DNA of 52,941 bases, counting the filler, from Sphacelaria rigidula (Eukaryota): assembly GCA_964200075.2 (NCBI GenBank). It is 4 parts of 4 records of this genome, joined end to end, with 100 filler letters (N's around TTAATTAATTAA, not from the genome) between each part and the next. Parts side by side here need not be neighbours in the genome. Positions count along the whole stretch, not along the records: positions 39,784 to 52,941 come from CAXNAA020003111.1; 3 more parts are not named here. One strand, written 5' to 3'. The notes beneath the pieces were generated by a model that saw only the letters and a program-made list of their open reading frames with translations, searched no databases and was not told where the DNA came from. Below are positions 11,400 to 48,100 of the stretch, one piece after another. How positions within the stretch are numbered: position 1 is the first letter of the stretch; each line of letters starts with the position of its first letter. The translations under genes and the position numbers were made by a program.

Positions 11400-12340
11400 T
11401 TACAGGCCCTACATATACTTTCCAGACACTCATTCCGCTGATGTGGTCGCTGAACCCCCTTGGGGGGGGCGAAGTACGAGTTCCATATTTTTTGCTGGTT
11501 GTTGTCTCGCGTGCACACCCTTTGCCACAAAACAATGCGGCCTCCCACCATAAGAACGCCGCATAATCAGAGAAGAAATGCACAAGCTTCTTGACCGAAG
11601 TGTTGCTCACCCAACTTTCCCCGGCAACAATTGTCGACTACACGATCATATGTTTGGTAAAATTCGCCAAATTCGCCAAAAAACACAGCATCTTACAAAC
11701 TGGGGATGGATCTTTTATTGGGGATGAGAAACCCGGAGGATTTCAAATCTTCGTATCCACATCAAATCTTCGAAATATGGTTTCATTTCTTCACCTACTG
11801 ATAGCTATTAACAACTGCTACACGACATAGAAATTGGGATTTCAATCATCGAAGTGTTGGGATCCTAGGTGAAAAAACAATTTCGGAACGATTTTGGCGT
11901 CCGTTCGGACACCCGGAGTTCCCCAAAAGTGGTTTCTTAACTAGGACCCCAACACTTCGGTGATCGAAATCCAAATTTCTACGGCGTGTAGCAGTTGCCA
12001 ATAGCTATCAGTAGGTCGAGAAATAGAATCATATTTTGAAGACTTGGTGTGGACACGAAGATTTTAATCGGGTTCTCATCCCCAATAAACGATCCATCCC
12101 CAATTTGTAAGATCCCGTGGTAAATGCATCTTTACTGCAGGGTCTCACAAGTTCCTTAGCCTGTTGATCAATAATACCAGCATACAACCGGCCCCCTCCA
12201 AACGCAACGCAATTGCTCAGATGTCACGTCCATACAATCGAAAAACTACGTTCGTTTCTAGACCCAGCGGGTACCTTGGACAGTTTCTCCAGAAGCGTAG
12301 CATTTTAGTCGCTCCGCAGACCGATATTCTGAATAAATAG
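11400..12340 (+). mobile_element. Ty3/gypsy LTR-retrotransposon pol relic (RT start and RT end/RNase H linker), internally deleted and interrupted by a MITE
   Basis: PFATKQCGLPP*ERRIIREEMHKLLDRSV at ~11518-11605 resembles the RT N-terminus. After the MITE, KCIFTAGSHKFLSLLINNTSIQPAPSKRNAIAQMSRP / TIEKLRSFL / YLGQFLQKRSILVAPQTDIL at ~12122-12335 resembles the gypsy 'LRSFLGxxGYxRxF..APLTDxL' linker. Stops and frameshifts are present and no YxDD core was seen. Confidence 0.7.
11684..12119. mobile_element. MITE family A, copy 1 (~436 bp, ~185-bp imperfect TIRs, CAC...GTG ends)
   Basis: The 5' end CACAGCATCTTACAAACTGGGGATGGATC is the near reverse complement of the 3' end GATCCATCCCCAATTTGTAAGATCCCGTG. 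The arms pair along most of the length around a short central spacer. A homologous copy lies at 40294-40736. Confidence 0.85.
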
Positions 12341-13162: not shown

Positions 13163-13262
13163 NNNNNNNNNNNNNNNNNNNNNNNNNNNNNNNNNNNNNN
13201 NNNNNNTTAATTAATTAANNNNNNNNNNNNNNNNNNNNNNNNNNNNNNNNNNNNNNNNNNNN
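13163..13262. other. Assembly gap with artificial TTAATTAATTAA spacer
   Basis: 100 nt: N run, TTAATTAATTAA (stops in all six frames), N run. Confidence 0.97.
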
Positions 13263-16105: not shown

Positions 16106-18217
16106 CTATCTCGCGTTCGTGTTTATGCTACTTACGCAAGGGGGGGAAAACGAAGCCGAAACTGCCAGCTCCATCTTCAGGCCTTCCTCTTTCCCATGAA
16201 ACACCACTGAAGAAATATCGACAGCAGCATCTTCTGCCCGAAGGTGTTCACGAACCATCGACGGCGTCCTCCTGCAAATCTGCTTCTTCATTCTTTCATC
16301 GCAATTATCGCTAGAGTTACAGCCAATCGTGCTGCTCCCACCTTCATCAGAGCAGGTGGCCCCGCCAGCACTCCTTCGCAACCTCTGCCTGGAACACTGA
16401 AGGGGAGCAGACGCTTCCAATTTCACCCTCGTGTGCGGCCTTTTCCACAGAGATTCTTCGGCACCCTCGGCGGGCTGCGGCGGCGCAGTACCAACAAGTT
16501 CGGGACTCACGAGCGAAACAGGGCCGAACCCGACATCACCCGTACCACCCTTATGACTAGCGGAATATTTGGGTTGTCTGTCCTTGGAACTTTTATCGAG
16601 GACGTCTCCACGTCGCCCTCGTCCGGTTGCTCGAGATACGGCATGTTGGCATACGTCAACATGTTCGTCGCCATCAACGCGATACACACACCGATTCAAA
16701 CAGCCCCCGGTGCCACACGTCTTTCTCCTTACACTAACCATCCCCACCCTCGCGTGATCGGCACAGAACTGCGCCTTCCGGCTTCCCGCTACACCATAGG
16801 ATGGTTGTTTGGAGCAGCCCTCGTTGCCGCACCTCTTGTTCACTACATCAACCATCCCCGTCTCGGCGTGGTCGCCACAAAAGAGTCTTTCCCTACTTCC
16901 CGCTTCACCGTAAGATGCACGTTTGGAGCAGCCCTCATTGCCACACTTCTTGCTCACTACATTGACCGCCCCTGCCCGGGCATGCTCGGCACAGAACTCC
17001 GCTTTTCGACTTCCCGCTACACCGTACGATGGTTGTGTGGAGCAACCCTTTTTGCCGCACTTTTTGCTGCTTACATTGACCATCCCTGCCCCGGCATGAT
17101 CAGCACAGAACTCCGCCTTCCGACTGCCCGCTACACCGTACGATGGTTTCTTGGGGCAGCTCTCGTTGCCGCACTTGCTCACTTTACGGATCATGTCCGC
17201 CCTGGCGTGATCAGCACAGAACTCCGCCTTCCGGCTTCCCGCTATCCTGTATGATGGTCGTTTGGAGCAGCCCGCATTGCCGCACTTCTTGTTCACTACA
17301 TTGACCATCCCCAACCTCGCATGATCAGCACAGAACTCCGCCTTCCGGCTTCCACCTACACCGTAAGATGCACGTTTAGAGCAGCCCTCGGTGCCACACG
17401 TGTTTCTCCTTACACTCACCATCCCCAACCTGGCGTGATCAGCACAGAATTCCGCTTTCCGACTCCCCGCTACACCGTACGATGGTTGCTTGGAGCAGCC
17501 CTTGGTGCCACACGTCCTTCTCCTTACACTCACCATCCCCAACCTGGCGTGATCAGCACAAAATTCCGCTTTCCGACTCCCCGCTACACCGTACGATGGT
17601 TGTGTGGAGCAGCCCTCTTTGCGGCACTTCTCGCTCCTTACATTGACCATCCCTGCCCTGGCGTGATTAGCACAGAACTCCGCCTTCCGACTGCCCGCTA
17701 CACCGTACGATGGTATCTTGGGGCAGCTCTCGTTGCCGCACTTGCTCACTTTACGGATCATGTCCGCCCTGGCGTGATCAGCACAGAACTCCGCCTTCCG
17801 GCTTCCCGCTATACCGTATGATGGTCGTTTGGAGCAGCCCGCATTGCCGCACGTTTTGTTGACTACATCAACCATCCCCAACCTCGCGTGATCGGCACAG
17901 AACTCCGCCAACCGGCCTCCCGCTATACCGTATGATGCACGTTTGGAGCAGCTTTCAATTGCGCACTTCTTGTTCGTTACATCGACCATTCCCAACCTGG
18001 CGTGATCGTCACAGAACTCCGCCTTTCGGCTTCCCGCTATACCGTACGATGCGGTTTTGGAGCAGCCCTCCGTGCCGCACTTTTTCTTCTTCACGTTAAC
18101 CATCTCCACCTTCGCGTGGCCAGCACAGAATTCCGCTTTCCGACTTCCTGCTACACCGTACGATGGTTGTTTCGAGCAGCCCTCGTTGCCGCACCTCTTC
18201 CCTACGTTTTTCACCAT
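16106..18217 (-). CDS. EsV-1-7 cysteine-rich repeat protein, ~14 tandem repeats plus low-complexity C-terminal tail
   Basis: Uninterrupted ORF. The track starts it at a TTG at 18286; the first in-frame ATG is at 18217. A pyrimidine-rich ...ttctcag just upstream could be a splice acceptor, so a 5' exon is possible. It has 13 well-formed and 1 degenerate repeat of consensus KxCGxEGCSKxPSYGVAGSRKAEFCADHARxGMVxV (C-x4-C-x16-C-x2-H), which matches the EsV-1-7 repeat family of brown algae and phaeoviruses. Confidence 0.9.
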   Translation of the reverse strand: MVKNVGKRCGNEGCSKQPSYGVAGSRKAEFCAGHAKVEMVNVKKKKCGTEGCSKTASYGIAGSRKAEFCDDHARLGMVDVTNKKCAIESCSKRASYGIAGGRLAEFCADHARLGMVDVVNKTCGNAGCSKRPSYGIAGSRKAEFCADHARADMIRKVSKCGNESCPKIPSYGVAGSRKAEFCANHARAGMVNVRSEKCRKEGCSTQPSYGVAGSRKAEFCADHARLGMVSVRRRTCGTKGCSKQPSYGVAGSRKAEFCADHARLGMVSVRRNTCGTEGCSKRASYGVGGSRKAEFCADHARLGMVNVVNKKCGNAGCSKRPSYRIAGSRKAEFCADHARADMIRKVSKCGNESCPKKPSYGVAGSRKAEFCADHAGAGMVNVSSKKCGKKGCSTQPSYGVAGSRKAEFCAEHARAGAVNVVSKKCGNEGCSKRASYGEAGSRERLFCGDHAETGMVDVVNKRCGNEGCSKQPSYGVAGSRKAQFCADHARVGMVSVRRKTCGTGGCLNRCVYRVDGDEHVDVCQHAVSRATGRGRRGDVLDKSSKDRQPKYSASHKGGTGDVGFGPVSLVSPELVGTAPPQPAEGAEESLWKRPHTRVKLEASAPLQCSRQRLRRSAGGATCSDEGGSSTIGCNSSDNCDERMKKQICRRTPSMVREHLRAEDAAVDISSVVFHGKEEGLKMELAVSASFSPPCVSSINTNAR

Positions 18218-20069
18218 CCCAACCCTGTTCGCCGGCCCCTCCTGATGCTGCCTGAGAATATGCAACAGATTCAAAAGCCGGGTCAAAGATTGTCAAGTGT
18301 TCATCAAATGCGGCATACAGTACTTCGAGAAAAATGGTGAGTGCGGGCTGTTCATATCTTGCGTGGGCCTTCGCTATGTGATAAGCCCGGGTAAGCCTTT
18401 GCTCTGTCGAACGTTTCATTTCCAACCGTGATGCTGTCGATTCGTGGAGAGCTTTGTAAAACACTGCATATTTCCCCCACTGAAGTTGCCACTGGATTGC
18501 GCAACCCATGCAAAAAAGCAACTCAGACACATGTCACACGCCACGGCCAAAACCCAGCAGTATGGGAGAATGATATCGATCGAAAACACACATCACAAGC
18601 TTGATATATTCGTTTTTAAAGTTGTAAGATCTCGAGGCTCCACGAGAAACTCGTAGCCCACTCTCTGTTGCGGTCAGTTGTGCCATGCAGAAAGCTTGAC
18701 AAAATCAAATGTATGTGTATCACAAATGTCTTTGCCTGCGGAAACCTCCTTCACTCAACTTCAGCCAATTTGCGCGTGTGAATTGACATGGTTAAGAGGA
18801 TGGCAACGTCCTCGTCGTAAGTAGCATTCTGCAAACTTCTGCATTAGTACGTGCCACCGCTGTTATTGTCCGTACTGACACAACCGGTCGACGACTCCGG
18901 GCCTCAAAAGGCAGGCAGGTTTCTCGGCGACTGATGACCACCAAACCTTCAGTTTCCGCAACACCCACTGACATACTTGCAACCAACGAGTACCGAAAGT
19001 TGTGGAATAATCACGCGAAACTACAATACAGAAAACACGGGGTAGACAACCGAAGTTGATTTTTCCACGAATGAGTCGGGGATTCTACTAAAAAAATACG
19101 GAATCCTGATCTATTCTCGGTGAATTTCGATCCATCTTGCAAGCGATAGCTTGGGAAGACGGCATACTGAAAGGGAGGTAATCGAAACGACTGGTGATGA
19201 ATGAGAACAAGAGCAACAAACGATGAAATATCTGACTCTCCATGCGAGAACCGAAAGTCAGTGCCTTGCTGAATGCTAAACCTACTCAGCACACCTTGGA
19301 CCCGGCGTAACCAGGAGATGGTGGGGGTAAGCTACACACTTTGAAATGTACGATAATAACGCTACCCAAGTTAACTTGTTGGAGGAGTAGTACGTATCGG
19401 CGTCTACTGACTACGAAGTGTCCATTACGTCGGCAAGTCGCCCAGTCACGGTATGGCTCGAGCGGTGAGGCCCATGCTTGAAAACATTCATTTCGCGGTG
19501 GCTGGAAAATATTAAAAGCTCAGGTCCCGCCTCAGAACCAATACATGATGATCTCAATAATCCCGTCGACAGCTCATAATGAATGCATGGCCATATCATA
19601 TATGCCCAACAAATACACGTCCTTGACGAAGCCATCGTGGACTGCGCCACTTGAAGTTCCTTCGTAGTATATCTCGAGGGTTGATGCCGAGTTTGCGAAT
19701 GAAAATGGCTTCAAATGTGCAGGGAGATACACCATATGCACTGCCCTCCGTGTGTGACACGATATTACATATATATATAATATCGGGGGCGCACAGCAGC
19801 GCAGCGATTATCGTAAGGAGGCGTGCACGCGATTTTATACTGGAATGAGTGTGCAAGTCCCTCCGCGCCCGCCCCGGGGGATGACTGTCCGGGCCAATGC
19901 CAATGATAGGGGTCCAACGCGCGGATTCGTTCCGCGTGCTGCGTCCTACGTTGTAGCTACGGTAATACGGTGAAAGTGTGTCGTCACCGATGAACGGAAC
20001 ATGTATCGATGAGAAATCCCTGTGGTTGCGGCCACACAGCGCGCGGGGTTCAACCCTCGTGTTTTGGAT

Positions 20070-26424: not shown

Positions 26425-26524
26425 NNNNNNNNNNNNNNNNNNNNNNNNNNNNNNNNNNNNNNNNNNNNTTAATTAATTAANNNNNNNNNNNNNNNNNNNN
26501 NNNNNNNNNNNNNNNNNNNNNNNN
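26425..26524. other. Assembly gap with artificial TTAATTAATTAA spacer
   Basis: Same 100-nt structure. Confidence 0.97.
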
Positions 26525-30396: not shown

Positions 30397-31379
30397 GTAG
30401 TGTACATGGGCGCAACTTTGCCTTTGAGTTATTCTAGTTTTCGATCTGTGGAGCATGATTTTGTCCTTTCCCATGCCGCCACCTCGCGAAACTGTGGCGG
30501 ATTCGGATTGGAGGAGGGGGGAGGGGGGAGGGGGGGGGGGGGGGGAGGGAGTTTGTGGTGGGTAGAGCTGCTGCATGTGCGNNNNNNNNNNTGAGGGCGG
30601 TGGGGGGGTGGGGGGGGCGGGGGGGGGGTGGGGGGGGGGGGTGGGGGGGGGGGGTGGAAGTTTGTAGTGCGTACAGCTGCTGAATTTGCGGGATATTGCG
30701 TCTGGGTACGCGAATCGACACAAGGCAATTCACTGCAGATTGCTTGCAGGCACTACTCTAATGTTGCTCCAGCAAAAAACGAAGGCGCAGCCGGTCTACC
30801 TCCTCTGTCGGGGGCATACTCCGCATCGTACGACTCCTGTCATGGCAGGCATGGTCACCTACGACTGTAGTATGGGAACCGCGAGATTCATATGCAGTAG
30901 GTACGAAACGGTGCATGCAGGCGCGCCCAACCGTGTGATGCGTACGTAGAACTTTGGTACGATGTTGTAAATCGTCAGCACACGACCGTAGTTGTATTTG
31001 GCCCTCCTCAAGAGTGCGGGTCGCGATCCCAGAGGCAGCACGGTATTTTCTTTGCGCCTCCGCACGATGAACATATTTTGGGGTGTACGACATGCAACGT
31101 TACATGAACCAAGATCAGTCGCTGCTTGACAGAAGCAAAACATTTCCCCACAATAGTTTCGCCTTGCAACAATGCAGACGATGAAACACACAGACGTTTG
31201 CTCCGCGCACCCCATTTGTTGCAGTTCGCAGATGCGTGTGTAGTGCTGTTGGCCGTGTCAAGGTAACGCCTAATGCGTCCCTTTGCCTCATGTTTGTCGT
31301 CCGTATGCATGAGTTCAACGTACATCTTTTGTCTGATCGAGAAAAATATGTTTTAACATGATTGATGTTGCAGCTGCAG

Positions 31380-39683: not shown

Positions 39684-39783
39684 NNNNNNNNNNNNNNNNN
39701 NNNNNNNNNNNNNNNNNNNNNNNNNNNTTAATTAATTAANNNNNNNNNNNNNNNNNNNNNNNNNNNNNNNNNNNNNNNNNNNN
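39684..39783. other. Assembly gap with artificial TTAATTAATTAA spacer
   Basis: Same 100-nt structure. Confidence 0.97.
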
Positions 39784-40293: not shown

Positions 40294-40736
40294 CACAAAC
40301 ATCTTACAAATTGGGGATGGATCTTTTATTGGGAATGAGAAACCCGGAGAATAAAAATCTTGGTATCCACACCAAATCTTTGGAATATGGTTCCATTTCT
40401 TCACCTAGTGATACAGTTATTGACATCTGCTACACGCCATAGAAATTTGGATTTCGATCACCGAAATGTTGGGGCCCTAAGTGAAAAATCAATTTCGGAA
40501 CCACTCTGACGTCCGTTCGGACACCCGGAATTCCCCAAAAATGCTTTCTGACCTAAGACCACAACATTTCCGTGATAGAAATCCAAATTTCTATGGCGTG
40601 TAGCAGTTGTCAATAATCATCAGTAGGTGAAGAAATGGAACCATATTTCGAAGATTTGATGTGGATACGAAGATTTTTATTCTCCGGGTTTCTCATCCCC
40701 AATAAAAGATCAATCCCCAATTTGTAAGATCCCGTG
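40294..40736. mobile_element. MITE family A, copy 2 (~443 bp)
   Basis: Colinear with 11684-12119, including the central CGTCCGTTCGGACACCCGGA and the terminal TTTGTAAGATCCCGTG. Confidence 0.85.
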
Positions 40737-41007
40737 TTCACACGAGAAATTCATTTTGATTAAACGGGTCGCAAAGGTCATTCAGCTGATGATCGAGCAG
40801 GCTTGCGGGAGATACCCGTGCTTCAACGCCGGCAATGTACACGTCAACCACTCTTCTCCGGAAATTTTCGTCTGACGCCGGCCGGATGTCATGATGAACC
40901 AATCGAGCATATTATGGCTGTATCTTGTTTCTCTTTTCTCCCGCCGCGCGTGAGTGTACACCCTGGAAATACGAAACCAGTCGTCCACACAGCCGCTGGC
41001 ACAACCG

Positions 41008-41308
41008 AATACTGTTCATTGTATACTTTATTTGGATGCGCCAACAGTGCACATCTTCAAAAAACGTATGCAGCCCTACGGTGGAACCATCCGGAATAAA
41101 ATATACGCACTTAATTTTCCATATGCCCGGGTTGCTACAGCCAACATACGGACTTGTGAACATGCACAGTGTACCAGGGCCATACGGGTTAGCAGGTGAG
41201 GATTGTTGAATACTGTTTCATGTATACTTCATCCGGATGCGCCGACCGTGCACATCTTTGGATAAAATATGCAGCCCTACCGTGGAACCACTCGGAATAG
41301 AATAGACG
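41008..41308 (+). repeat. Diverged direct duplication (~100-bp units, 200-bp period)
   Basis: GAATACTGTT...GGATGCGCC...GTGCACATCTT...TATGCAGCCCTAC.GTGGAACCA at 41008 and 41208. Confidence 0.85.
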
Positions 41309-41742
41309 TATTGCCTTCAGGAGACAGAGGCCGAGACCATGGATACCACCTCTGAATGCACGGAAAACCCACCCCAGGGGACGGCTGTTGTATAATTCCC
41401 TGCGCCATCATGCTGTTTATATACTACTGTGCATCACCCGTCTCTCATTTGGGCTCCAAGTGAGTTTTTTCATGCATTCAACTGCAAAATCTCAGAAACG
41501 TGGTCTGGCGGGTTACCGCCGATATCCCCCACGGTTCGATGACAACCTGGTTGAACTCAGCGTTGGAGATACCAGGCTTTCGCAGCCTTACGAACTCCTT
41601 CGCATCAATGAAAAAAGACAACTACCAACCGTATTTTGTCTACGAGCGTTGATGGTGCACCTGAGCGCAAGCTAGCGTACGCCCAGCGAAATCGTAGCAA
41701 GTTATGTTCAACTAAAAGCACCATCCATCATCTGTCGGACAC

Positions 41743-44700
41743 TCAAGGAGGATGACCAGATACTCCTAGCTCCAACTTCACGCGTGAATTCTCATCCACC
41801 TCTTCAGAGTGGACATCTTCCAACGCGCCGAGACACCAAGACACCACAGCTGGCGAACCACAGAGCCGTCCCGCATTCGCTCCACGACTGCTGCTGCTGC
41901 TGGACCTATCACCACCTCCCCCCCTGCTCCGACCATGCGGAGCGGTAGCCTGCTCGCTCCAAGCTCTCATGACATTGCCATCGTATGCAGCAGAAAAGAC
42001 TGCCAGCTCCATCTTCATTCCTGCCCCCGTCCTTGCCTCTGAGGGAATCCCACAATCAGTCACGAAGGGTAGCTGTTCTAAGAGCAGCGGGGCTGTTGTA
42101 CCACCCCGCCCGGGACCGGGGCACGCACTACGGCGAGTACCAATATAGTCGCTTCCAGTAGACCCAGAACATGCTGCGCGCTTGCGTTTAGATCCTCGTA
42201 CGTCAGCGACGATTCCCTCACCACTCTCCGTCGGACTGCGGTCCGAGGTGGTCACTCCAGTGCTGATCTCTTCGGTGCCGTACACCCTAGCTGTGTTGCA
42301 TGCAGTAGCATGATCGTGGCAGAACTTCGCCTCATCAAGGTTGCGTTTCTTGCAGATATTCAGTGTTGAGGATCCCTCATTGCTATACCTCTCGGTCTCC
42401 ACATTCACCATTTCCACTGTGGAATGCTTGGAGAACAACTCCGCCATGCTTCCCGCGACACCATGTGACGACTGCTTTTGACAGCTTTCATCACCGCACC
42501 TCTTTTGTACCAACTTCACCATTCCCGCCTTGACATGCTGCATGCAGAACTCCGCCTCCTTGCTTCCCGATACACCATACGATGCATGCGTTTGGCAGCC
42601 CTTTCCGCCGCACTTTTTCTTCACGCTCACCATTCCTGCCGTGGCATGCTCGGAGCAGAACGCCGCCTTCGTGCTCATCACCCCACCATACAACGGATAT
42701 TTTTGACAGCCCTCGTCCTTGCACTCCTTGCGCCTCATGTCCGCCATTCCCGCACTGGCATGCTCGGAGCAGACCTCCGCCTTCTTGCTTCCCGTTACAC
42801 CATATGATGGCTGCTTTTGGCAGCCCTCGTCTCTGCACTTGTTGTTTCTCACGTTCACCATTCCTGCCGTGGCATGCTCGGAGCAGAACTCTGCCTTCGT
42901 GATCCCCACCACACCATACGACGGATACTTTCGACAGCCCTTGTCCTTGCAGTTCTTGCGCTTCACGTCCACCATTCCTGCCCTGGCATGCTGGGAGCAG
43001 AACGTCGCCTTCGTGCTCCCCACAACACCATACGACGGATACTTTCGACAAAACTTCTCCTTGCATATGTTGCGCTTCACGTCCACCATTCCCGCACTGG
43101 CATGCTCGGAGCAGACCTCCGCCTTCTTGCTTCCCGATACTCCATACGACGGCTGCTTTTGGCAGCCCTCGTGTCTGCACTTGCTATTCCTCACGTTCAC
43201 CATTCCTGCCCTGGCATGCTCGGAGCAGACCTCCGCCTTCGTGCTCCCCACTACACCATACGACGGCCGTTTTCGGCAGCCCTCTTCGCCGCACTTGTTG
43301 CTCCTCACGTCCACCATTCCAGCACCAGCATGCTCGGAGCAGAACTCCGCCTTCTTGCTCTCCACTCCGCCATACGACGGTCGCTTTCGGCAGCCCTCTT
43401 CGCCGCATGTTGTGCTCGCCTTCACCATTCCCGTCCCGGCATGCTTGATGCAGAACGTCGCCTTCGTGCTTCCCACAACACCATACGACGGATATTTCCG
43501 ACGGATCTTGTCCGTGCACCTCTCGCTCCTCACGTCCACCATTCCTGCACTGGCATGCTCGGAGCAGACCTCCGCCTTCTTGCTTCCCGATACTCCATAC
43601 GACGGTCGCTTTCGGCAGCCCTCGCGTCTGCACTTGCTATTCCTCACGTTCACCATTCCTGCTCTGGCATGCTCGAAGCAGACCTCCGCCTTCGTGCTCC
43701 CCACCACACCATACGACGGCCGTTTTCGGCAGCCCTCTTCGCCGCACTTGTTGCTCCTCACGTCCACCATTCCAGCACGAGCATGCTCGGAGCAGAATTC
43801 TGGTTTGCTTCCCGATACTCCATACAACGGTCGCTTTTCGCAGCCCTCGTCTCTGCACCTGTTGTTCCTCGCGTTCACCATTCCTGCCCTGGCATGCTCG
43901 GAGCAGAACTCCGCCTTCGTGCTCCCCACAACACCATACGACGGCTGCTTTCGGCAGCCCTCTTCGCCGCACTTCTTGTTCTTCACGTCCACCATTCCTG
44001 CACTGGCATGCTCGGAGCAGAACTCCGCCTTCTTGCTCTCTACTCCACCGTACGACGGCTGCTTTTGGCAGCCCTCTTCGCTGCACTTCTTTCTCGCCTT
44101 CACCATTCCTGCCCTGGCATGCTCGAAGCAGACCTCCGCCTTCGTGCTCCCCACCACACCATACGACGGCCGTTTTCGGCAGCCCTCTTCGCCGCACTTG
44201 TTGTTCCTCACGTCCACCATTCCAGTACTAGCATGCTCGGAGCAGAATTCTGGTTTGCTTCCCGATACTCCATACGACGGTCGTCTTTCGCAGCCCTCGT
44301 CTCTGCACTTGTTGTTTTTCACGTTCACCATTCCTGCCCTGGCATGCTCGGAGCAGAACTCCACCTTCCTTCCTCCCAATACACGATACGACAGTCTCTT
44401 TCGGCAGCCCTCTTCGCCACACCTCTTCTCCCTTACGCTCACCATCTCCGTAGTAGCATGCTCGGAGCAGACCTCCGCCTTCTTGCTTCCCGCTACACCA
44501 TACCACGGATGCTTTTGACAGCCCTCGTGCCTGCACTTGTTGTTCCTCACGTCCACCATTCCTGCACTGGCATGCTCGGAGCAGAATTCCGGTTTGCTTC
44601 CCATTACATTATACGACGGCTGCTTTCGGCAGCCCTCGTCTCTACACTTCTTGCTCCTCACGTCCACCATTCCCGCACTAGCATGCTCGGAGCAGAACTT

Positions 44701-45120
44701 CGCCTTACTGCTTCCCGATACTCCATACGACGACTGCGTTTGGCAGCCCTCGTGTCTGCACTTGCTGTTCCTCACGTTCACCATTCCTGCCCTGGCATGC
44801 TCGGAGCAAAACTCCGCTTTCTTGCTCTCCACTCCACCATACGACGGCTGCTTTCGGCAGCCCTCTTCGCCGCACTTCTTGTTCTTCACGTCCACCATTC
44901 CAGCACTAGCATGCTCGGAGCAGAACTCCGCCTTCTTGCTCCCCACTCCGCCATACGACGGTCGCTTTCGGCAGCCCTCTTCGCCGCACTTTTTTCTCCC
45001 CTTCACCATTCCTGCCCTGGCATGCTCGAAGCAGAACTCCGGTTGATAGCCCTGCAACCCAAGCAATGGGTGCTTGGAGCAGCCTGCCTTGATACATTGT
45101 CTTTTGGCCATGTCGGCCAT
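41743..45120 (-). CDS. EsV-1-7 cysteine-rich repeat protein, ~24-25 tandem repeats plus C-terminal tail (1125 aa)
   Basis: 3.4-kb ORF starting with ATG. Repeats have the consensus KCxxEGCRKxPSYGVxGSxKAEFCSEHAxAGMVxV. Repeat 15 lacks its second Cys and the last two repeats are degenerate. The tail carries a basic GSKRKR patch. Confidence 0.92.
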   Translation of the reverse strand: MADMAKRQCIKAGCSKHPLLGLQGYQPEFCFEHARAGMVKGRKKCGEEGCRKRPSYGGVGSKKAEFCSEHASAGMVDVKNKKCGEEGCRKQPSYGGVESKKAEFCSEHARAGMVNVRNSKCRHEGCQTQSSYGVSGSSKAKFCSEHASAGMVDVRSKKCRDEGCRKQPSYNVMGSKPEFCSEHASAGMVDVRNNKCRHEGCQKHPWYGVAGSKKAEVCSEHATTEMVSVREKRCGEEGCRKRLSYRVLGGRKVEFCSEHARAGMVNVKNNKCRDEGCERRPSYGVSGSKPEFCSEHASTGMVDVRNNKCGEEGCRKRPSYGVVGSTKAEVCFEHARAGMVKARKKCSEEGCQKQPSYGGVESKKAEFCSEHASAGMVDVKNKKCGEEGCRKQPSYGVVGSTKAEFCSEHARAGMVNARNNRCRDEGCEKRPLYGVSGSKPEFCSEHARAGMVDVRSNKCGEEGCRKRPSYGVVGSTKAEVCFEHARAGMVNVRNSKCRREGCRKRPSYGVSGSKKAEVCSEHASAGMVDVRSERCTDKIRRKYPSYGVVGSTKATFCIKHAGTGMVKASTTCGEEGCRKRPSYGGVESKKAEFCSEHAGAGMVDVRSNKCGEEGCRKRPSYGVVGSTKAEVCSEHARAGMVNVRNSKCRHEGCQKQPSYGVSGSKKAEVCSEHASAGMVDVKRNICKEKFCRKYPSYGVVGSTKATFCSQHARAGMVDVKRKNCKDKGCRKYPSYGVVGITKAEFCSEHATAGMVNVRNNKCRDEGCQKQPSYGVTGSKKAEVCSEHASAGMADMRRKECKDEGCQKYPLYGGVMSTKAAFCSEHATAGMVSVKKKCGGKGCQTHASYGVSGSKEAEFCMQHVKAGMVKLVQKRCGDESCQKQSSHGVAGSMAELFSKHSTVEMVNVETERYSNEGSSTLNICKKRNLDEAKFCHDHATACNTARVYGTEEISTGVTTSDRSPTESGEGIVADVRGSKRKRAACSGSTGSDYIGTRRSACPGPGRGGTTAPLLLEQLPFVTDCGIPSEARTGAGMKMELAVFSAAYDGNVMRAWSEQATAPHGRSRGGGGDRSSSSSSRGANAGRLCGSPAVVSWCLGALEDVHSEEVDENSRVKLELGVSGHPP

Positions 45121-48100
45121 CAGCTTCTTCTTTGCGTGGTGCTCCTTGGAGACCTATTTGTTCGCGGTGGCACGATCGACAGAACGCCGGAGAGGTGTTG
45201 TGAGCTACAGCGGGAAGAACATTGAAATACTCTGCAGAAGTAATGATATTATTTTTGTCACACAGGAACTAGCACAACAAGAGCTATTTACATTCAAGGA
45301 GAATGACACTTCGTATACATTGGCCCCGCTTCTCCAAACCTTTCACCTGAGTCGATTTCAGCGAATAAGACATCCTCTACACTACGGCGGCTCGAATCAG
45401 CAGCGAACATATCACTGGTATATTGTAAAGCAAGATGAGCATGCTGCAGAAGCACACCATGCGTACGTGGTTGAGGAAGAGCCACCGTGAGAGCTATCGA
45501 GCCATGTCTAGATTGTCGGTTGCTGTATTCATGGTGGTCTCTGAGTCCGAACCTCATACATATCCGGAGCATTTTTCCTGCCGATGCTGGACCCACATGT
45601 GGATTCGGTTTCTATTTACGTTTTTACAAAGACACGTTCTGAGGTTTGGTGACGGGCAATTTATTGTGAAAAGTTCTTCTTGTTTTCCCCCCAAATAATT
45701 AGGGCTGCTCGAGGAACCACGTACATTACAGGGGAACAAAAAAATGCGACACAACCGCTGTATGTACTCTATTGTACTATTGACATCCCCATCACCGCTG
45801 CCCTGCACTACTGACACCCCCCTATCGAATGCACCGCATGACGTCTTCGTAGAGAAACGCATATACTGCACAGCACATACATCACCTTCATTCATCGAGT
45901 AGATGGCGGCCTGGGTCGTTTGTCCAACATTTGAAATCTTGGACAGGACAGTAGCTGAGAAGACGGGGGAGCACCAAGTGCAAGATGGGGTAACATGATT
46001 GAGCGCAACAAAAAATAGACGACTTCAACTAAGCAGTTTCGCCTGCCGCGCCTGCTGCTTTACCATGACCGATAACTGGTCCTCGATGCGCTGAGAGCTT
46101 GATGGCGGGGCGCTGGGACGGGCCATCATTTCGTTGCGACGAGTTACAACGTTCTGCACAGCCATCGTGTAGTCTTGTGGTGTCGACCACATCAAACGTT
46201 CCTGCCCGTGCCGCCCCGTTCCTCTTCGGTGCACATCTCATTGTCTCGCATGTCCTTTTTGGAATATTCCTTGGTGTTCGAGAGAGTTTCGATCAGACTC
46301 AAAGTTGTCGTTTTGGTTCGAGTGTGGTTCGAGAACGTGATTCTTCGGCGTGGTTCTTCGACATATGATTTTTTTTCATCTTGAAAAGATACGGCCCGAG
46401 TGAAGAGCTGGTGCAGTAGGATCGAAGAACGGTGCATCGCCCTGCCAGTACGATACAGTGAACTGCTGTGCGATACGGTACCGAGTACAGTACGGTACAC
46501 TGCATACTTGGTCATCGCCCTGGGGCATGGCGTTTCTGTTGCATTCGTTGTCCGTCAGACCCCGGTCAAGGAATAAAAGACTCGCGTAACTGAACTGCTG
46601 CGAACGGGACTGTCTGCTGTTCCAGTTTTGAAAAGAATATACGCCTCCTGTAATATATATCATCGTACGTCACCGTGCGTGCGTTCCGTGCGCAAAGAGA
46701 TTTGTTTTCTAAGCGTATCTTATCGTGATTTTCAACTAAGTGACGGAAGTTCAGAATGAGGGACAACTCAGAGTCGACTACGACGAGTGAACTCGGAATA
46801 CATGACGATAACAAAATCAAGCGCTACGACTCGCAAAAACTCAGACCCATAGCCGTTGGACGTATGTAGACATACCACGAGCCGCACCCCCTTCCAACTA
46901 CCGACCACTCTTTTTTAAGGCTCGCCACATGGTCGGCGCTGATCAATAATACTCATATCTAAAGGGAAACGTGAACGTAGAAAGCGCACGCAGAAGTGAT
47001 ACATACTATCTAACACAGCAACACATGAAACCAAGAGCTCCACCGTCCCCGCCAACACCCGACGCAGCTCGAGCCGTACTGATCAGGTGAGCACGTGGTG
47101 CTTGGCCTTGGTCTACTTTGATCAAAATTCTATGAGAAACAGCATATTGTAAGGTATGTACCAGAAAGTCGCACAGATGAAGACAAGCAACACCACGTTT
47201 TCCAGTTGAAATCAACAGGCACGCGGACGCCCCTCTTCCAATACGGCGTAGAGTTTGATCAAGCAAAGATTGCTGTGCGTAGATGAGCAAGGACTAGAGG
47301 AGGAGCTAAAAACGAGTGGGTGGTAGGTTTTCGCGCTTGTTCACGGGGCTCGTTGTATACATGTTGCGTTTCTGTGTCGCGTCTTTCTTGTGCCAGCATA
47401 GAGATGTTGGGTCAATCGTCACAGCTAGAATCGATGCATGCTTCGACCTATGCGCAGATTTGGATTGCATCTGAACAATGTGCGTTCAACAAGACTCGGA
47501 AGGGTCGTTTGGGGCAGATTTATGTTCGTGACCTAGCTAGCAACAGATTTCACCTCTCCCGCTAAGGCAAGACATTCCGTGAAGGTCTCTCCTCCGCCGT
47601 TTGGTTTAAAAATGGTTATGTGAGACTTATGCCCAGTTCAGAAATGCCCACATGAGTATTGCTGTGCATGTGAAGAGCGCTTGCTCCTTTTGTAATAATA
47701 CCGGAAATTAGGGCAATTCTTAGTTGACAACGTTTTGTGCACATCTTGTCAAATGTCAGGGCCAATTGTCCCCACTATTGCATCCAATAATAGCCCGGGG
47801 GGTGCAGATGTCGGGTCAAATGTTAACTATCAATTACCATCTCCGAGAGCCTAATCGGCGCGCTTCGTCACCACATATAGCCCACATAGATGTGAAGTAC
47901 TGTAGTGTATCCTTTCCTCCTCGTCCTAGGAGCACACATCACTAATCTTACGCTGCTCAGAGACATAATGTTCATCGTGAGCGAGTCTGTTTGTAGTATC
48001 TGTACAGACAATAGTCTCTTGGTGCGCGAACAAGTGTGCTGTGAGCTCTGTGTCGTTTGATAGGCTCGTATGTGTATGAAGGTTGTCGTTGGGACGGCGA

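Follow-up and report, generated by a model that had tools for sequence, protein, structure and literature searches.

The whole stretch of DNA analysed here (the window; 52,941 nt of Sphacelaria rigidula, NCBI GenBank assembly GCA_964200075.2) is made of four joined records, and parts that are neighbours in it may be non-adjacent in the genome; all positions given below count along it. On its minus strand, at 41743-45120, it carries a gene of the EsV-1-7 family that encodes 24 tandem cysteine- and histidine-containing units. The explanation that we favour, with somewhat better than even confidence, is that this is an intact family gene, that its array was built by block duplication, that its units bind zinc and that the product would work as a nuclear nucleic-acid-binding module with contacts spread over its surface. 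A preliminary description of the same sequence had proposed that two variable residues in each unit form a recognition code like those of transcription activator-like effector (TALE) and pentatricopeptide repeat (PPR) proteins. We attribute the four-state patterns seen at these two positions to block duplication and drift, not to a two-residue code, and with this an attractive but unsupported shortcut is removed.

The 24-unit gene and the growth of its array

The features of the gene and of its paralogue in the window are as follows (aa, amino acids; HMM, hidden Markov model; pI, isoelectric point; psi-K-x-E is the pattern of SUMO acceptor sites).

41743-45120, minus strand: whole open reading frame (ORF), 1125 aa plus stop, ATG start; EsV-1-7 family gene, apparently single-exon
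42388-45096, minus strand: EsV-1-7 array, 24 units of 36-38 aa, residues 9-911; delimited with our own HMM and Pfam
42274-42387, minus strand: degenerate 25th unit, residues 912-949; first two Cys lost, C-x2-H retained, no match to the HMM
41746-42273, minus strand: C-terminal tail, non-repeat, low complexity, pI 6.6, no Pfam domain
42178-42189, minus strand: basic motif KRKR, resembling a nuclear localisation signal and pointing to a possible nuclear role
42007-42018, minus strand: MKME, within the motif KMELAV; fits the psi-K-x-E pattern
41770-41781, minus strand: VKLE, second psi-K-x-E-type motif, also found in the tail of the paralogue
16106-18286, minus strand: paralogous EsV-1-7 gene (P0002), 726 aa, with 13 units at 16721-18193; Pfam E=2.5e-194

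PF19114 (EsV_1_7_cys) was the sole Pfam family found in the ORF (E=0, 1076.4 bits, 24 stretches); the gathering score of 25 bits is passed and the units are tandem Cys3His units, which places the protein in the EsV-1-7 family. The motif of this family, as Macaisne et al. 2017 are said to have described it, consists of tandem ~38-aa units with the spacing C-x4-C-x16-C-x2-H. In the array studied here the full ligand set C-x4-C-x15/16-C-x2-H is present in 22 of the 24 units (x16 in 18, x15 in four), in agreement with the nearly fixed scaffold of about 24 repeats that the preliminary description had noticed, and unit length is 36-38 aa. Unit 15 carries R in place of its second Cys and unit 24 carries F in place of its third. 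Counted by position, C1 is retained in 24/24 units, C6 in 23/24, C23 in 23/24 and H26 in 24/24, and from these invariant ligands we infer that the Cys3His set of each unit binds zinc, most likely one zinc per 37-38 aa unit held by Cys1, Cys6, Cys23 and His26. The repeats are also strongly basic, as had been noted before (pI 9.24, with 165 K+R versus 101 D+E over 903 aa and a net charge of +64). Only eight residues stand ahead of the first unit, and the 3378-nt frame runs uninterrupted across all 24 units; the locus would be an intact, apparently single-exon gene.

This is the longest array among the proteins examined. Our HMM found at most 13 units in any of 201 other proteins, and in the best 150 of the 4946 cluster representatives matched by a profile of the window units the matched stretches numbered no more than 14, compared with 24 in the window gene.

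The similarity among units indicates how the array grew. About five unit subtypes recur at a distance along it, and the nucleotide identity of distant units is high (r2/r16, 96%; r3/r17, 92%; r4/r18, 89%; r8/r12, 95%; r9/r13, 94%; r13/r17, 97%), whereas adjacent units are less alike (~75-89%). Since distant units are more alike than neighbours, growth occurred by copying blocks of units; we propose that blocks of two to four units, drawn from the ~five subtypes, were duplicated. Tandem Repeats Finder reported a period of 114 nt (22.3 copies, 77% matches), and periods of 225 and 339 nt, corresponding to two and three units, scored equal to or above it, which hints at higher-order units. Block duplication is also seen in the paralogue, where units 4-6 reappear near-identical as units 9-11.

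Selection was estimated with the Nei-Gojobori method on 12 phylogenetically independent closest unit pairs of the 24-unit array. Over all columns the pooled dN/dS (ratio of non-synonymous to synonymous rates) was 0.66, with 143.5 non-synonymous and 55.5 synonymous differences. The ratio of the corresponding proportions (pN/pS) was 0.36 in the 17 scaffold columns (35.5/25.5 differences) and 1.00 in the other 21 (108/30), the linker positions 35-37 being the most changeable. The scaffold columns are under purifying selection, and after each duplication the non-scaffold positions would drift near-neutrally while ligands and core would be constrained.

Variability of the two proposed recognition positions

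When columns are numbered from the first Cys of each unit, the two positions put forward as base-contacting residues are column 9 (CxK[x]P) and column 33 (GMV[x]V). The residue series reported for them agree with the translation letter for letter, namely H,R,Q,Q,Q,H,R,R,R,Q,Q,R,R,R,Y,R,R,Q,Y,Y,Q,Y,H,Q at column 9 and K,D,N,D,D,S,N,D,K,D,N,D,N,D,K,D,N,D,D,N,D,S,K,N at column 33, and both columns use small polar alphabets in the 24-unit array. In this array, however, they are not more variable than about ten other columns, an outcome that the preliminary description itself had named as speaking against a code. Entropy was 1.86 bits at column 9 and 1.76 bits at column 33, compared with 1.9-2.4 bits at columns 2, 3, 15, 18, 28, 36, 37 and 38 and 1.5 bits at columns 7 and 35. 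Entropy was at least 1.5 bits in twelve columns, and variation confined to two residues, as in TALE proteins, is not what the array displays. Columns 9 and 33 need eight amino-acid changes each on a maximum-likelihood tree built from all 24 units, the same as columns 3, 7, 28 and 35, and columns 36 and 37 need 12 each. The retention index on the units was 0.58 for column 9 and 0.50 for column 33, and 0.83-0.89 for the subtype-defining columns 2, 15 and 18; the four-state pattern is in part inherited with the unit subtype.

Diversifying selection was not detected at columns 9 and 33, which together gave a pN/pS of 0.28 (7/5 differences) on small counts and with low power; at columns 7, 9 and 11 the value was 0.59 (11.5/7.5). 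CpG decay, which had been mentioned as a partial source of the pattern, was ruled out as the origin of the R/Q states, and that caveat is set aside because the observed/expected CpG ratio is close to 1 both in the window (1.02) and in the array (0.99).

A word-indexed search covering 5.8 billion clusters (threshold E<=1e-10) returned 61 relatives and no ortholog above 44% identity; the best relative reaches that value over 44% of the query. An exhaustive profile search with 37 window units (the 24-unit array plus the 13-unit paralogue) matched 4946 cluster representatives at E<=0.001, 2452 at E<=1e-10 and 428 at E<=1e-30. From 200 of the 201 other proteins 1234 units were extracted, and within-array variability was bootstrapped over 162 arrays of at least five units (1000 replicates). 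Column 9 is mostly R (310) or Q (308), followed by H, I and K, and ranks 11 overall and first within arrays; it is a genuine unit-to-unit variable site across the family, and to this extent the earlier proposal stands. Column 33 is a two-state column family-wide (D 478, N 465) with an entropy of 2.05 bits, ranking 21 of 38 overall and 19 of 38 within arrays. In three ortholog-like protein pairs (76-84% identical) it differed in 0 of 19 units, and column 9 differed in 3 of 19, about the average. Column 33 is a constrained Asp/Asn site. As a TALE- or PPR-like pair the two residues are not upheld, given the entropy, the unit tree, the pN/pS and the rank of column 33, for which the outcome that the preliminary description had named as contrary to a code is also seen family-wide.

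Behind column 9, the most variable columns within arrays are 7 (1.70 bits) and 11 (1.57 bits), followed by a dozen more at 1.4-1.55 bits, and the contrast between variable and fixed surface is shallow, unlike in TALE. The alternate columns are conserved (8 is K, 10 is P and 12 is Y/F), and in 50 arrays fused to a nuclease-like domain, which is described below, the order of variability is 11, 9, 29 and 7. Two-state behaviour is also found at columns 12 (Y/F), 13 (G/N), 10 (P/A) and 27 (A/K). Furthermore, coupling between columns 9 and 33, measured as mutual information (MI) with average product correction (APC), ranks 54 among 703 column pairs, and preferred combinations of the PPR or PUF type were not observed. 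Our preferred explanation would make column 9 a tolerant, mostly Arg/Gln, exposed site and column 33 a conserved Asp/Asn site, with variability mostly at columns 7, 9 and 11 after the first zinc knuckle, contacts spread over many surface positions and no reading of one base per repeat through two residues.

The superhelix-type array that had been suggested is not what structure prediction returned. AlphaFold2 models of units 2-9 (51 aligned sequences; mean predicted local distance difference test score, pLDDT, 69.0; predicted template modelling score, pTM, 0.27) and of units 16-18 (mean pLDDT 85.4, pTM 0.48) agree in placing short strands at columns 12-14 and 31-33 of each unit, with a bridge at column 22, and helices of four or more residues, as a TALE-type helical superhelix would have, are absent from both. 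What is predicted is a chain of small beta units and not a helical solenoid; the strands fall at columns 12-14, 22 and 31-33, and the units are separated by basic linkers, 4-6 residues long. Column 33 falls in the last predicted strand, adjoining Met31, which all 24 units share and which 1069 of the family units tallied at this column also carry; columns 7-11 were not called strand by DSSP in the models.

Foldseek searches of both models against the PDB gave 0 matches at the significance cut-off of E<=0.001; at E<=10 there were 54 for the eight-unit model and 26 for the three-unit model, and the nearest folds, all non-significant, were LIM pairs, B-boxes, PHD fingers and the zinc-binding domain of nsp13. 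The profile of 37 units gave four matches to PDB sequences at E<=10, none significant, with plastocyanin as the best (E=0.47). The stretch at columns 23-32 (F-C-x-x-H-A-x-A-G-M-V, for example at 43180-43293) resembles the copper-site loop of plastocyanin, C-x2-H-x4-M. This likeness is probably a chance match, with Met31 acting as a core residue.

Evidence on possible nucleic-acid binding and competing explanations

One link of the family to nucleic acids comes from its viral members. Foldseek searches against predicted viral structures (BFVD) gave 27 matches at E<=0.001, all of them viral EsV-1-7-type proteins, including EsV-1-7 itself (Q8QNQ2, E=2.5e-12, 51% identity) and EsV-1-115; by name, four of the 27 are giant-virus proteins called 'Endonuclease' and one is called 'DNA primase'. 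A conserved C-terminal domain, counted with a strict motif, is fused to the array in 24 of the 61 first relatives and in 60 of all 201. Its invariant residues are R-P-D, D-E-x-x-H, R and R-x-N-P-D (RPD...DE..H...R...R.NPD), and its Pfam matches are weak and below cutoff (DUF2726, E=0.0012; Hjc, E=0.0063), both families being members of the PD-(D/E)xK group. In the viral relatives this domain looks nuclease-like. Relatives of one fusion protein were found at 21 loci on IMG/VR viral contigs, several of which are labelled as giant-virus metagenome-assembled genomes (MAGs), and the viral arrays are shorter, with 4-11 units. As a separate observation, A0A481Z3W0 (Pithovirus LCPAC104), which is named DNA primase, matches the three-unit model at E=5e-6, suggesting that the repeat is also joined to replication enzymes.

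On one 153-kb IMG/VR contig two paralogous genes of this kind (L001 and L002), each with an array and a nuclease-like domain, lie ~34 kb apart. Their C-terminal domains are 84% identical (155/184) and their arrays 55% (205/374), and the arrays have gained or lost entire units. Differences between the arrays extend over many columns, affecting columns 3, 7, 14 and 28 in 6/6 units, column 9 in 3/6 and column 33 in 1/6.

The other link is a near-threshold likeness to the SBP DNA-binding domain of plants. SBP (PF03110) was the second-best Pfam family for the repeats and matched 11 of 42 sequences; its best match, over window units 16-18, reached E=7.9e-6 and 26.5 bits against a cutoff of 27 bits and does not make the array an SBP member. 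The first finger of SBP has the spacing C-x4-C-x16-C-x2-H. Where the matching stretch was printed (units 16-18; P0002), one unit lies on profile positions 1-35 of 75. In the accessible part of PMC5768680 the first SBP finger is a Cys3His site. From the fusions and the SBP match, nucleic-acid binding by the array is plausible. A nuclear, DNA-directed role seems most likely, although we infer every step that leads from fusion to function, and the basic array would then be a nuclear nucleic-acid-binding module for which DNA is a likelier ligand than RNA.

Several results weigh against this preferred explanation. The case for DNA binding is built from distant viral fusions, a sub-threshold Pfam match and charge. 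For the C-terminal domain, a single-sequence search of the PDB returned no chain at E<=10, a profile search of the PDB returned one chain (E=2.1) that lay over the repeat part and not over this domain, and no PHROG matched it, two of the five proteins hitting unnamed PHROGs in their repeat region only. The placement of units relative to each other is not confidently predicted, as the pTM of both models (0.27 and 0.48) indicates. Column 9 is the most variable column within arrays, with a mean of 1.87 bits and the top rank in 999 of 1000 bootstraps. Between columns 9 and 33, R/Q and D/N combine in about equal numbers (R-D 142, R-N 104, Q-D 131, Q-N 107), and near-equal use of all four combinations is also what a recognition code would look like. 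MI between neighbouring units is low at column 9 (0.093) and column 33 (0.047), compared with 0.3-0.5 at most variable columns. In viral arrays the Arg codons of column 9 are CGY in 16/24 cases, which is two steps from Gln, so the R/Q dimorphism is not everywhere a one-step mutational toggle. Finally, the pN/pS of columns 9 and 33 stands on few changes, seven non-synonymous and five synonymous. R and Q at column 9 may be two equally tolerated states or two functional states.

Among the alternatives, the one that fares best, although we still hold it to be unlikely, is that the array is a protein-protein or other non-nucleic-acid scaffold of the LIM, B-box or RING-like kind, its surface variation reflecting partner diversity or mere tolerance. 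This would fit the nearest, non-significant PDB folds, which are multi-zinc modules (LIM pairs, B-boxes and PHD fingers, and also the nsp13 zinc-binding domain), the pN/pS of ~1 on the non-scaffold surface and the family literature, which in its accessible parts names no nucleic-acid ligand. It is harder to reconcile with the nuclease-like domain that 60 of 201 relatives carry and the viral proteins called endonuclease and primase, with the near-threshold match to the SBP DNA-binding domain and with the strong net positive charge of the array.

We are rather doubtful of a looser modular model, in which specificity lies mainly at columns 7, 9 and 11 after the first zinc knuckle, perhaps with more positions, and depends on context as in C2H2 fingers. 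Columns 9, 7 and 11 are the top three within the 162 arrays (1.87, 1.70 and 1.57 bits), columns 11, 9, 29 and 7 lead in the nuclease-fused arrays, conservation of columns 8, 10 and 12 is expected if 7, 9 and 11 share an exposed side, and the viral paralogues retain the nuclease-like domain and diversify their arrays. The contrast is shallow, however, with a dozen further columns at 1.4-1.55 bits, pN/pS at columns 7, 9 and 11 is 0.59 in this array, and DSSP calls no strand at columns 7-11. Doubtful to a similar degree is a wider proposal, that EsV-1-7 arrays are an unrecognised modular class of zinc DNA-recognition proteins with which giant viruses aim homing-type nuclease-like enzymes and from which brown algae and their relatives domesticated nuclear regulators; each unit would make a few base contacts, mainly through columns 7, 9 and 11, with Arg/Gln at column 9 as a main determinant. 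If such modular arrays recognised DNA in this way, the 24-unit protein would read a very long or repeated target. Sequence-specific DNA recognition, if true, would explain how a virus-derived repeat became a family of developmental regulators and might add a new scaffold for designed DNA binders. The leads that are left are column 9 with its alternate neighbours, the repeated coupling to DNA-acting enzymes in giant viruses and the correspondence of one unit to about half an SBP domain.

It is improbable that the gene is a young, fast-expanding virus-derived repeat copy with little or no function of its own, shaped by duplication and neutral decay. A pN/pS of 1.00 at non-scaffold columns, the loss of one zinc ligand in two units, the degenerate 25th unit and the lack of an ortholog above 44% identity in 5.8 billion clusters would agree with this, as would the co-expression behaviour of the family, which resembles that of young, peripheral genes according to the accessible part of a preprint. 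Such a copy would not be expected to keep a 3378-nt frame open through 24 units, a scaffold under purifying selection (pN/pS 0.36), all four ligands in 22 of 24 units and tail motifs shared by two paralogues. Lastly, a TALE/PPR-like code in which columns 9 and 33 let each unit of a programmable array read one or a few nucleotides is very improbable, because the small polar alphabets, the independent combination of R/Q and D/N states in similar numbers, the low neighbour-unit correlation at both columns, a column 33 that is kept between ortholog-like pairs yet differs among units, and the fusion to nuclease-like domains are set against about ten equally variable columns in this array, a within-array rank of 19/38 for column 33, L001/L002 differences that extend over many columns (column 9 in 3/6 units, column 33 in 1/6), a pN/pS of 0.28, uncoupled columns (MI rank 54/703), further two-state columns (12, 13, 10 and 27) and a prediction without a helical solenoid.

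Window context and comparison with known systems

The paralogue (P0002) stands 25 kb from the 24-unit gene in window coordinates, in a different joined part, and can be compared with the clustering reported for the family in the accessible part of the Denoeud et al. preprint. A Pfam match to DUF1490 on its repeats (E=3.2e-21) looks spurious. The tails of the two genes are otherwise unrelated, and share an identical 19-nt stretch (41999-42017 and 16161-16179) that encodes KMELAV, as well as the VKLE motif (41770-41781 in the 24-unit gene). Tails of algal-type homologues often contain KR(K/A)R, and several have V/A-K-x-E strings. A six-frame HMM scan of the window found no further EsV-1-7 array besides those of these two genes. 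A viral insertion was also considered and rejected, since Pfam gave no family above cutoff for any of the ten next largest ORFs of the window and nothing marks an insert.

Splicing of the C-terminal tail was rejected as well: contigs from public runs, collinear with the window over 41270-42656 and over 45006-45154, show no joint within the tail, and the tails of the paralogues share just 19 nt. None of the public runs holding the locus is on record as RNA. Three runs of one study, guessed to be RNA, have contigs at 41270-42656 and 45006-45154 and little or none past 45157, and were not counted as evidence; beyond 45157 a public run of unknown kind continues. Depth in public runs is very high at 41000-41307, suggesting another repeat there. 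A dispersed element of ~440 bp occurs at 40300-40738 and 11689-12119; the copies are 82-86% identical and match in both orientations, being internally palindromic and resembling a miniature inverted-repeat transposable element (MITE). They lie 1-4 kb downstream of the EsV-1-7 genes in window coordinates, the copy at 11689-12119 across a part joint. Paired runs of 44 N with 12 bases between them, at 13163-13262, 26425-26524 and 39684-39783 (~13.26 kb apart), are joints that look like masking or scaffolding, not biology, and short N runs stand at 30582, 33771 and 34796.

The family comprises gene 7 of Ectocarpus siliculosus virus 1 and an expanded set of brown-algal and giant-virus members. The accessible part of the Denoeud et al. 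preprint describes how it grew to hundreds of genes, which often form tandem clusters, and takes a unique N-terminal domain plus five repeats as the mark of orthologues of IMM (IMMEDIATE UPRIGHT). A 2026 preprint, as far as its accessible part goes, speaks of a domain of viral affinity, of no other Pfam domain in any Ectocarpus member and of young-gene-like expression. The EsV-1-7 repeat is the sole recognisable domain of the developmental regulator IMM, which two reviews, in the parts accessible, call a protein of unknown function. The accessible literature on EsV-1-7, PF19114 or IPR043822 names no ligand and contains no recognition-code proposal, binding data or SBP comparison; Macaisne et al. 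2017 and its supplements may hold such points. The window gene shares with the family (PF19114/IPR043822) the tandem Cys3His unit of 37-38 aa and the lack of any other domain, and differs in having 24 units, compared with five in IMM as described in the accessible text and at most 14 in the best 150 of 4946 representatives. Compared by description, it is not an IMM orthologue, having only eight residues before its array. It is a new and unusually long family member, otherwise ordinary; the supplementary tables of Denoeud et al. (e.g. Table S17) might list it.

The giant-virus proteins in which an array is followed by a nuclease-like domain (some called 'Endonuclease' in UniProt; from Faunusvirus, cedratvirus and pithovirus-like MAGs) have the same repeat unit by sequence and fold. 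In them the enzyme domain is kept and the array varies in number and sequence, whereas the tail of the window protein is of low complexity and has no such domain. One EsV-1-7 unit aligns to the first half of the SBP domain; the second, Cys2HisCys site and the nuclear signal of SBP are absent in EsV-1-7, SBP is a single domain and not a tandem array, and no SBP chain appeared in the PDB sequence or fold searches. TALE, PPR and PUF proteins resemble EsV-1-7 proteins in their long tandem arrays of ~35-aa units with a few polar positions that vary from unit to unit, but they are helical solenoids without metal, whereas EsV-1-7 units are predicted to be zinc-bound beta modules; in addition, EsV-1-7 arrays lack the sharp contrast between a scaffold and two hypervariable residues, and their candidate positions are uncoupled. 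C2H2 arrays and tandem RanBP2-type zinc ribbons are zinc modules that read 3 bp or 3 nt each. EsV-1-7 units differ from them in ligand spacing, which in C2H2 fingers is C-x2-4-C-x12-H-x3-5-H, with no zf-C2H2 or zf-RanBP Pfam match at E<=0.01 and no significant PDB fold match, and are like them in that each small unit would hold one zinc, the linkers are short and the variability, at columns 7, 9 and 11, adjoins the zinc knuckle.

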